From the NCBI RefSeq assembly GCF_003334765.1, contig NZ_QOWT01000005.1: a stretch of DNA of 64,000 bases; one strand, given 5' to 3'. The stretch is from Escherichia coli. GTDB taxonomy: Bacteria > Pseudomonadota > Gammaproteobacteria > Enterobacterales > Enterobacteriaceae. The translations under genes were made by a program, and so were the position numbers. Numbering within the stretch: position 1 is the stretch's first letter; each line of letters begins with the position of its first letter. This document shows, piece after piece, positions 23,847 to 40,591 of this stretch. The notes below the pieces were generated by a model. It saw only the letters and a list, made by a program, of their open reading frames with translations. It was not told the DNA's origin and made no database searches.

Positions 23847-23950
23847 ACGTTCCTCCTTTATATGAACTCACCGGAGCAGGCTCCGGTGAGGTGTTGTGAA
23901 CTTAAGTCTGGACGAAATGCCCGAAAACGAAAGTTTGAGGCGTAAAAAGC

Positions 23951-29651: not shown

Positions 29652-29656
29652 AAATG

Positions 29657-31298: not shown

Positions 31299-32339
31299 TC
31301 ATTTATCGGAAGACGCCTGCCACAGATTCAGCTCGCCATCGGCGATATGCTGATCAATCTGCGCCAGCTCCTCGGTGCTAAATGTCAGATTATTCAGCGC
31401 CTGCACGTTCTCCTCAAGTTGCTCCGCGCGGCTGGCACCAATCAATACCGACGTCACTCGCTCATCTTTCAGCAACCAGCTTAACGCCATTTGCGCCATT
31501 GATTGTCCACGCTGCTGTGCCATTTCATGCAATAAGCGCAGGCTGTTGAGGTTGGCTTCGGTGAGCATTTTCGGCGTCAGACCACGAACTTTATTCCCTT
31601 CACGATGCATCCGTGAATCTTGCGGAATACCGTTGAGATATTTTCCGGTCAGCAATCCCTGAGCCAGAGGAGTAAAGGCAATGCAGCCCACGCCGTTATT
31701 TTGCAGGGTATCCAGCAGGCCGCTTTTATCCACCCAGCGGTTCAGTAAATTGTACGAAGGTTGATGAATTAACAGCGGAATTTTCCACTCGCGCAGTAAC
31801 TCGACCATTTTTTGCGTCCGCTCTGGCGAGTAAGAGGAGATCCCGACATACAGCGCCTTACCGCTTTGTACTGCATGAGCCAGCGCAGAGGCGGTTTCTT
31901 CCATCGGCGTATTTTCATCGACGCGATGAGAGTAAAAGATATCGACATACTCAAGCCCCATACGCTTCAGGCTTTGGTCGAGGCTGGCGAGCAGGTATTT
32001 ACGTGAACCGCCAGAGCCGTAAGGGCCGGGCCACATATCGTATCCGGCTTTGGTAGAGATAATCAGTTCATCGCGATAAGCGGCAAAATCCTCGCGCAGC
32101 AGGCGACCAAAGTTCTCTTCTGCGCTTCCTGGAGGCGGCCCGTAATTGTTGGCTAAATCAAAGTGCGTAATGCCTAAATCAAACGCTTTACGCAGGATCG
32201 CACGCTGTGATTCCAGCGCGTTAACGTGACCGAAATTGTGCCATAAACCGAGCGATAACGCGGGCAGGCGTAAACCACTTTTTCCGCAATAGCGGTACTG
32301 CATCTGCCCGTAACGTTCGGGATTCGCTAACCAGACCAT
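31299..32339 (-). CDS. yghZ: Aldo-keto reductase YghZ
   Basis: 346 aa; AKR family. Confidence 0.85.
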   Translation of the reverse strand: MVWLANPERYGQMQYRYCGKSGLRLPALSLGLWHNFGHVNALESQRAILRKAFDLGITHFDLANNYGPPPGSAEENFGRLLREDFAAYRDELIISTKAGYDMWPGPYGSGGSRKYLLASLDQSLKRMGLEYVDIFYSHRVDENTPMEETASALAHAVQSGKALYVGISSYSPERTQKMVELLREWKIPLLIHQPSYNLLNRWVDKSGLLDTLQNNGVGCIAFTPLAQGLLTGKYLNGIPQDSRMHREGNKVRGLTPKMLTEANLNSLRLLHEMAQQRGQSMAQMALSWLLKDERVTSVLIGASRAEQLEENVQALNNLTFSTEELAQIDQHIADGELNLWQASSDK

Positions 32340-32491
32340 GACCTCTCCTTTCCACCGTTCAATTTCGAAACAATGTTTTTAGTTTAGCGATTCGCCTGCG
32401 CGTATCCCGTAGTCTGGCTCACAGAGTGACGAAAAACTGGGCAAAAACACGTGCTTATGCTTTGCTTAAAAAACACCAACTGAGGAGTGCA

Positions 32492-33382
32492 ATGATGCCG
32501 CGTTTAACCGCCAAAGATTTCCCACAAGAGTTGCTGGATTACTACGACTATTACGCTCACGGGAAAATCTCGAAACGTGAGTTCCTCAACCTTGCGGCGA
32601 AGTATGCGGTGGGCGGGATGACGGCATTAGCGTTGTTTGATTTGCTCAAGCCAAATTATGCGCTGGCGACTCAGGTAGAGTTTACCGACCCGGAGATTGT
32701 TGCTGAGTACATCACGTATCCTTCACCAAATGGTCACGGCGAGGTACGGGGTTATCTGGTGAAACCCGCAAAAATGAGCGGCAAAACGCCAGCCGTGGTG
32801 GTGGTGCATGAGAATCGTGGACTGAATCCGTATATCGAAGATGTGGCACGGCGAGTAGCGAAGGCGGGGTATATCGCCCTGGCACCTGACGGCTTAAGTT
32901 CCGTTGGAGGTTATCCGGGTAATGACGATAAAGGTCGTGAGCTGCAACAGCAGATTGATCCAACCAAACTGATGAATGATTTCTTTGCCGCAATTGAGTT
33001 TATGCAACGCTATCCGCAAGCGACAGGCAAAGCGGGTATTACCGGATTTTGCTATGGCGGTGGTGTATCGAACGCGGCGGCTGTCGCGTATCCGGAACTG
33101 GCCTGCGCGGTGCCGTTTTATGGTCGACAGGCACCCACCGCCGATGTGGCGAAGATTGAAGCGCCTTTACTACTCCACTACGCGGAACTGGACACCCGAA
33201 TCAACGAGGGCTGGCCTGCTTACGAGGCGGCGTTGAAAGCCAATAATAAGGTCTATGAGGCGTATATCTATCCGGGGGTTAATCACGGATTCCATAATGA
33301 TTCCACGCCCCGTTATGACAAATCTGCCGCCGATCTTGCCTGGCAAAGGACGCTGAAATGGTTCGATAAATATCTCTCCTGA
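32492..33382 (+). CDS. yghX: Dienelactone-hydrolase-family protein YghX, apparently intact here
   Basis: Continuous ORF 32426-33382 (318 aa from first Met; start uncertain, MMPRLTAK at 32492 chosen); GFCYGG nucleophile motif. Confidence 0.7.
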   Translation: MMPRLTAKDFPQELLDYYDYYAHGKISKREFLNLAAKYAVGGMTALALFDLLKPNYALATQVEFTDPEIVAEYITYPSPNGHGEVRGYLVKPAKMSGKTPAVVVVHENRGLNPYIEDVARRVAKAGYIALAPDGLSSVGGYPGNDDKGRELQQQIDPTKLMNDFFAAIEFMQRYPQATGKAGITGFCYGGGVSNAAAVAYPELACAVPFYGRQAPTADVAKIEAPLLLHYAELDTRINEGWPAYEAALKANNKVYEAYIYPGVNHGFHNDSTPRYDKSAADLAWQRTLKWFDKYLS

Positions 33383-33500
33383 TAGGTTTATCTCTTACGG
33401 GATTACGTCTTAAACAAGCATGAAAAAATAGCGTGCGCAAAAGTCGTTCTTTGCCTAAAATATCGCTATATATGACAATATATAGCGAATGAGGTGAACG

Positions 33501-33788
33501 ATGAATAACCATTTTGGTAAAGGCTTAATGGCGGGATTAAAAGCAACGCATGCCGACAGTGCGGTTAATGTGACAAAATTCTGTGCCGATTATAAACGCG
33601 GTTTTGTATTAGGCTACTCACACCGGATGTACGAAAAGACCGGAGATCGCCAGCTTAGCGCCTGGGAAGCGGGTATTCTGACGCGCCGTTATGGACTGGA
33701 TAAAGAGATGGTAATGGATTTCTTTCGTGAGAATAATTCCTGTTCTACGTTGCGCTTTTTTATGGCCGGTTATCGCCTAGAAAATTGA
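33501..33788 (+). CDS. yghW: Small protein YghW (DUF2623)
   Basis: 95 aa ORF; conserved position upstream of hyb operon. Confidence 0.7.
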
Positions 33789-40522: not shown

Positions 40523-40530
40523 TGATTAAA

Positions 40531-40564
40531 GCCGGATGCGGCGTAAATGCTTTATCCGGCTACA
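40531..40564. repeat. REP (repetitive extragenic palindrome) element
   Basis: GCCGGATGCGGCGTAAATGCTTTATCCGGCTACA closely matches the classic E. coli REP consensus; lies between convergent hybG and yghU. Confidence 0.8.
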
Positions 40565-40591
40565 TAGCGATAAGCCTGCCAATGTTGCGAC

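Follow-up and report, generated by a model that had tools for sequence, protein, structure and literature searches.

The yghX locus and the limits of the gene

The window, by which we mean the whole stretch of Escherichia coli DNA analysed here (64,000 nucleotides), carries the gene yghX between the divergent gpr and the yghW-hybOABCDEFG genes. The window ORFs, the annotation of strain B771 and that of K-12 agree on this position; window and K-12 are colinear. Strain B771 originates from human faeces in the Czech Republic and was assembled independently; its sequence is 100% identical to that of the window. The features of the locus are listed in Table 1. A search of the whole window against Rfam revealed no RNA element at the yghX locus. 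The sole match reaching the Rfam gathering threshold anywhere in the window is the ES173 sRNA (RF02753, 99 bits) at 23885-23948 on the minus strand, between dkgA and yqhD.

Table 1. Features at and around yghX, with positions in the window
Feature	Position	Strand	Basis or remark
gpr (L-glyceraldehyde 3-phosphate reductase)	31299..32339	-	divergent neighbour; ORF and annotation in B771 and K-12
yghX leader, non-coding	32426..32494	+	frame open only in the window lineage; A6 tract, extra ATG 32492
yghX CDS (YghX family hydrolase precursor)	32495..33382	+	295 codons and stop; PGAP in B771, NF041440, conserved Met
N-terminal 58 residues, Tat-like signal region	32495..32668	+	PF23678, KR at the twin-arginine place, A-L-A
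KR in place of twin arginine	32573-32578	+	alignment with homologues
Site of K-12 2-bp deletion (TA, codon Tyr37)	32603..32604	+	alignment; intact in window
A-L-A (A56-L57-A58)	32660-32668	+	invariant in Enterobacteriaceae
Dienelactone hydrolase (alpha/beta hydrolase) catalytic domain	32744..33376	+	PF01738 1-217/217
Site of K-12 1-bp deletion (one C of CC, codon Thr157)	32964..32965	+	alignment; intact in window
Cys186	33050-33052	+	triad; ClcD variant 4U2C residue 123
Asp233	33191-33193	+	triad; ClcD variant 4U2C residue 171
His264	33284-33286	+	triad; ClcD variant 4U2C residue 202
yghW (DUF2623)	33501..33788	+	downstream neighbour; ORF and annotation in B771 and K-12
hybO	from 33977		after yghW; ORF and annotation in B771 and K-12

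On the plus strand of the window a frame without interruption extends over 32426..33382, or 318 codons when counted from a GTG. An earlier reading of the locus, made from the sequence alone, had described a continuous ORF of up to 318 amino acids. The frame is indeed open, but as a gene length 318 amino acids is an overestimate: the conserved coding sequence starts at ATG 32495 and encodes 295 amino acids. PGAP places the CDS of strain B771 at exactly these coordinates (295 aa, WP_002431086.1). The start methionine of the orthologues falls on the position of ATG 32495 in 11 of 11 Enterobacteriaceae aligned, and a Shine-Dalgarno sequence, GAGGAG (32482-32487), lies 7 nt 5' of it. The same ATG is also the start of YqhI, a small protein that is translated in K-12.

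Two other starts were considered. The frame contains a second ATG at 32492, which like ATG 32495 is located 3' of the GAGGAG. It was rejected, being ACG in all four other strains compared (K-12, MS20658, FDAARGOS_1288 and UTAK-15) and only 4 nt from the Shine-Dalgarno sequence. The extension to the GTG exists because the window lineage lost a single A from the poly-A tract of the leader, which is A6 in the window (32468-32473) and A7, one A longer, in the same four strains. In all four of them the frame 5' of ATG 32495 meets a TGA. The GTG start of the 318-aa form, unconserved and out of frame in other strains, was rejected as well.

Family, catalytic triad and fold

The product of yghX matches the Pfam dienelactone hydrolase model DLH (PF01738) over its entire length (1-217/217, E 1.2e-46) and the NCBIfam model NF041440, 'YghX family hydrolase', likewise from end to end (1-292/292; 584.6 bits against a cutoff of 460). 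Both matches are far beyond chance, so a chance ORF is ruled out, and they bear out the dienelactone-hydrolase-like character that had been assigned to the ORF on first inspection. When YghX is aligned by phmmer to 4U2C, a variant of ClcD, its residues C186, D233 and H264 fall on ClcD residues 123, 171 and 202; Cys123, Asp171 and His202 form the well-established triad (Cys-Asp-His) of dienelactone hydrolase. Among 50 homologues, down to 35% identity, D233 is kept in all 50 and C186 and H264 in 45 each.

An AlphaFold2 model (AF2) built on the alignment of homologues reached a mean pLDDT of 96.3 and a pTM of 0.93. Foldseek superimposed it on PDB entry 4ZV9 with an rmsd of 1.0 A and a TM score of 0.99, and on ClcD structures with TM scores of 0.81-0.85. 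By analogy with the mechanism of ClcD, Cys186 in a G-F-C-Y-G-G elbow would act as the nucleophile, Asp233 and His264 would complete the triad, and an ester or lactone bond would be hydrolysed via a thioester acyl-enzyme intermediate. The orthologue of E. coli O157:H7 Sakai has been purified under the name EcoDLH; its phosphotriesterase activity was undetectable, with promiscuous substrates being the only ones assayed, and in the crystal the active-site cysteine was modified or oxidised (bioRxiv 10.1101/2025.10.30.685675). In the part of the yghX literature that was covered, mostly titles on metabolic engineering of K-12, a functional study of the intact gene was not found.

Lesions of the K-12 allele and the origin of YqhI

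The sequence-only reading took yghX to be a pseudogene of K-12 and looked to a pairwise alignment for the lesion. On the pseudogene it was correct. In the annotation of MG1655 the orthologous locus is the pseudogene yghX (b4658), with the small gene yqhI (b4755) overlapping its 5' end, and in derivatives of K-12 PGAP labels yghX 'frameshifted'. A MAFFT alignment of the window with K-12 contains 21 substitutions and four indel columns. It locates two lesions inside the ORF, a 2-bp deletion at 32603-4 and a 1-bp deletion at 32964-5. K-12 accordingly has two deletions in place of an identical intact ORF. Restoration of function in K-12 by the net loss of 3 bp was considered and rejected, as the stretch between the lesions contains stops in the frame of the yghX start codon.

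Read from the conserved ATG, the K-12 sequence encodes 36 native residues and then 11 frameshifted ones before it meets a stop. This product is exactly the published 47-aa protein YqhI (PMC6001520). YqhI was detected in K-12 by chromosomal epitope tagging (VanOrsdel et al., PMC6001520). It is induced under Mg2+ limitation independently of PhoQP, and it behaves as a soluble protein; in the same study of Mg2+ stress a yqhI deletion had a phenotype, which YqhI did not complement (PMC11429745). Since YqhI uses the same ATG, and is both detected and induced at low Mg2+, the start codon and the promoter of yghX are active, at least in K-12.

YqhI, and with it the Pfam family PF23678 ('YqhI-like'), is the N-terminal stump, i.e. 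the first 36 residues, of the probable export signal of YghX. That YqhI is a remnant of YghX is a point absent from both PMC6001520 and PMC11429745. YqhI has been studied as a stress-induced micro-protein, and functional readings of it should be tempered by its origin as a remnant.

Allele frequency and ancestral state

A 1.2-kb query matched the yghX locus in all 5,426 complete E. coli genomes. We counted the alleles at the two K-12 lesion sites in these genomes with allele-specific 40-mers, designed such that each 28-base megablast word spans the lesion. At the first site (2-bp deletion, codon 37) 3,493 genomes are intact, a second intact haplotype adds 98, 1,505 carry the deletion and 330 are unassigned; the intact total is therefore at least 3,591 of 5,426. 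At the second site (1-bp deletion, codon 157) 4,222 genomes are intact, 1,199 carry the deletion and 5 are unassigned. The intact state is thus found in 66-78% of complete E. coli genomes and the K-12 lesions in roughly 22-28%. Because FDAARGOS_1288 carries the 2-bp deletion without the 1-bp deletion, the data fit an order of events in which the 2-bp deletion would have come first and the 1-bp deletion later, within carriers of the former.

These counts also bear on whether the difference to K-12 could be a sequencing or assembly artefact, either as indels missed in the window or as false frameshifts in the K-12 reference. Both lesions do fall within short repeats (TATG, CC), and errors of the homopolymer type are frequent in some assemblies. 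Artefacts of this kind, however, would have to account for deleted alleles in 1,505 and 1,199 complete genomes next to intact alleles in at least 3,591 and 4,222, for the experimental finding of the 47-aa frameshift product with its predicted tail (PMC6001520), and for the complete identity of the window to the separately assembled B771. We regard the probability of an artefact as negligible; it is effectively refuted by the population counts already.

Orthologues of 294-299 aa from Citrobacter, Pseudescherichia, Enterobacter, Kosakonia, Leclercia and Silvania are gap-free across both sites. Since these outgroup genera possess full-length proteins, comparison places the intact yghX as the ancestral as well as the majority state in E. 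coli, and the K-12 allele as derived. Very probably, then, the window strain never suffered the two K-12 deletions and carries the intact, ancestral yghX allele of a Cys-dependent hydrolase. The earlier statement that this strain retains a gene lost in the reference holds in this sense; as a peculiarity of the strain it does not, given that 66-78% of complete genomes are intact at the two K-12 lesion sites.

Loss of yghX has also occurred in another way. Ten genomes match less than 80% of the 1.2-kb query. In one of them, strain IAL7255 (NZ_CM130730.1, 2248-3097), only the last ~96 bp of yghX are left, adjoining an IS1 transposase and at another place of the chromosome, close to mdtM/yjiA. Here the gene was lost by a separate route, mediated by an IS element.

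Functional state of the window allele

The window allele differs from that of MS20658 (95% DNA identity) by 38 synonymous and 6 non-synonymous codons, and from that of UTAK-15 by 11 and 4, respectively. Because synonymous changes greatly outnumber non-synonymous ones, the codon comparison indicates that yghX is under purifying selection. With its full-length family match, its intact triad and this pattern of codon changes (38 versus 6), YghX of the window looks functional, which is in line with the part of the first reading that spoke of a functional gene.

The allele is slightly unusual, in neutral-looking details only. Just 3 of the 5,426 genomes are at least 99% identical to the 1.2-kb query, and the 40-mer that includes the codon of Ile154 has an exact match in only 7 of them. 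Such details could be read in another way, namely that the ORF is open but silent or decaying in the window lineage, the leader deletion, ATG 32492 and the residues Ile154 and Ala180 impairing expression or activity. The A6 tract and ATG 32492 are unique to the window among the five E. coli compared, the Ile154 codon is rare, as the 40-mer shows, and a consensus scan found no promoter-like site 5' of yghX. The replacements, however, are conservative, with Ile and Ala each standing for Val, and outside the triad, the score of 584.6 bits for NF041440 is well over the cutoff of 460, and neither the Shine-Dalgarno sequence nor ATG 32495, the conserved start, is altered. As to the consensus scan, which covered promoters and terminators in 32250-33560 and found none upstream of yghX, its counts equal those of shuffled sequence for the whole region, so that its silence is uninformative. 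A silent or decaying gene is accordingly an improbable explanation, and we keep to a gene that looks functional.

The N-terminal 58 residues

Residues 1-58 of YghX read MPRLTAKDFPQELLDYYDYYAHGKIS-KR-EFLNLAAKYAVGGMTALALFDLLKPNYALA. PF23678 matches residues 1-36 (window 32495-32602, E 8.9e-20). At the position of the KR pair 30 of 38 non-enterobacterial homologues have RR, in a motif (S/T/D)RRxFL that is followed by an Ala/Gly-rich stretch and AxA. The motif of YghX, S-K-R-E-F-L-N, is without consecutive arginines, and KR is present in the window protein and in all 11 Enterobacteriaceae orthologues. Between KR and A-L-A, the latter of the A-x-A form of signal peptidase sites, lies a weakly hydrophobic h-region (aa 32-52, Kyte-Doolittle peak 1.85). 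The model TIGR01409 gave no match to the N-terminus of YghX even at E <= 10; the homologue P0137 came near the threshold, with 15.8 bits against a cutoff of 16.7. Because YghX does not match TIGR01409, its N-terminus is not filed as a Tat signal by membership, and the term Tat-like refers to resemblance and homology only. In the part of the literature on dienelactone hydrolase and twin-arginine export that was covered, nothing specific on a Tat-exported member of the family was found.

The conservation of the region matches that of the mature domain, and the model shows it as ordered. In Enterobacteriaceae 45 of 58 positions of the N-terminus are invariant, and 164 of 237 in the mature domain. 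The AF2 model shows three short ordered helices in residues 1-58, with pLDDT values of 88-95 in a chain whose overall pTM is 0.93. Within the n-region (aa 1-26, window 32495-32572), 22 of the first 24 residues are invariant in the Enterobacteriaceae orthologues and form an ordered helix in the model, and a motif LYDxYxH recurs before the RR position in distant homologues. One would not expect such conservation and modelled order of aa 1-26 if they were simply the n-region of a signal peptide. The crystal construct 4ZV9 lacks residues 1-59.

Some Tat substrates, both natural and engineered, are exported by signals with KR in the place of RR. In favour of Tat export of YghX are the RRxFL motif with its Ala/Gly-rich stretch and AxA in 30 of 38 distant homologues, the near-threshold score of P0137, the weak hydrophobicity of the h-region and a crystal construct from which residues 1-59 are omitted. 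Speaking against a simple cleaved Tat signal are KR, the missing match to TIGR01409, the three helices, whose pLDDT of 88-95 would be unusual in a disposable signal peptide, the conservation of the N-terminus and the motif LYDxYxH. Whether YghX itself takes the Tat route is, in our judgement, evenly balanced. If it does, folded YghX would be exported via Tat to the periplasm and cleaved after Ala-Leu-Ala58. We tentatively propose the fuller picture of a Tat-exported periplasmic Cys hydrolase with a natural Lys-Arg variant of the signal, in which the n-region (aa 1-26) may have a role beyond targeting, e.g. in the docking of a chaperone or, as long as the enzyme is not yet exported, in autoinhibition of its active site.

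Alternatively, and this we consider possible but somewhat doubtful, YghX is cytoplasmic or membrane-tethered, residues 1-58 forming a folded lid or anchor whose Tat resemblance is vestigial in Enterobacteriaceae. The uniform replacement of RR by KR in the window protein and its 11 orthologues would suit a vestige, and a lid or anchor would agree with the three confidently modelled helices, with an N-terminus conserved like the catalytic domain and with LYDxYxH being kept even in distant homologues. Against this, 30 of 38 distant homologues have a canonical RRxFL together with a hydrophobic stretch and AxA, and residues 1-59 are dispensable for folding and crystallisation of the catalytic domain. 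The solubility of the K-12 stump YqhI (PMC11429745) might seem to speak for a cytoplasmic protein too, but this carries little weight, since the greater part of the h-region is missing from YqhI.

Other differences between the window and K-12

At 29652/29653 the window is without ~233 bp that K-12 has between exbD and yghA (NC_000913 3150584-3150816). Identity to K-12 is 99.5% over window positions 1-29652 and then ~97.5-98.2% in the aligned segments beyond, which suggests a recombination boundary at 29652/29653. In the hybG-yghU intergenic region, window 40529-40590 is unalignable with the corresponding 115 bp of K-12 (3139595-3139709).

A further 8.4 kb of the window (48842-57227) is absent from K-12 MG1655, which at this place has IS5 (insH9) between yghQ and a truncated yghO. 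The B771 annotation of this segment comprises a hypothetical protein, a YtfJ-family protein, paralogues of lptF and lptG, a serine palmitoyltransferase (spt), an acyl carrier protein, an NAD-dependent epimerase/dehydratase, a fatty acyl-AMP ligase and a full-length yghO. The segment has the look of a cluster for making and exporting a lipid (sphingolipid-like?) that was lost from K-12.

Significance and comparison with known systems

Intact yghX as such is already known. There is a curated NCBI model (NF041440), a RefSeq protein and a structure (PDB 4ZV9), and the K-12 gene is annotated as a pseudogene. The reference annotation already gives the pseudogene status, RefSeq and PDB contain the intact protein, and our result adds nothing new in kind; its practical value is one of annotation and its discovery value is small. 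At this locus it is K-12 that is exceptional among E. coli; the species and its relatives normally have the gene intact. According to the part of the engineering literature that was covered, yghX of K-12 serves widely as a 'neutral' site for integration, an assumption that fails to transfer to strains with an intact gene.

The yghX pseudogene (b4658) and YqhI of K-12 represent the orthologous locus, with DNA ~98% identical to the window, and residues 1-36 of YqhI equal residues 1-36 of YghX. The K-12 locus differs by the two deletions, which leave the 47-aa stump as sole product, whereas the window encodes the whole enzyme.

With the YghX family (NF041440), to which the Sakai orthologue EcoDLH belongs, the window gene shares the locus between gpr and yghW-hybO and the length of the RefSeq proteins (295 aa). 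The 2.0-A structure 4ZV9 of EcoDLH, deposited under the title 'uncharacterized protein from E. coli O157:H7 str. Sakai', is 97% identical to YghX of the window over residues 59-294. The differences are conservative: the window protein has Val69, Ser135, Ile154, Ala180 and Tyr229 in place of Phe, Asn, Val, Val and Phe. Compared with the YghX family elsewhere, the A6 leader tract and the extra ATG 32492 are private to the window lineage.

With Tat signals of the TIGR01409 type the N-terminus shares a polar n-region, the (S/T)-R-R-x-F-L motif as seen in homologues, an h-region of weak hydrophobicity, A-x-A and, in the c-region, a basic residue (Lys52). It departs from them in having KR instead of RR, and in an n-region that is unusually long (26 residues), conserved and ordered in the AF2 model.

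ClcD of Pseudomonas knackmussii (1DIN, 4U2B/C) has the same alpha/beta hydrolase fold (TM ~0.84 on the target). Its Cys-Asp-His triad aligns with that of YghX, and so does the Glu that follows strand one (HE-N-R-G versus HE-I-L-G). Sequence identity to YghX, however, is only ~25%, and ClcD, an enzyme of 236 aa that acts in chlorocatechol degradation, is cytoplasmic and has no N-terminal extension, whereas YghX is surrounded by no gene cluster for aromatic degradation.
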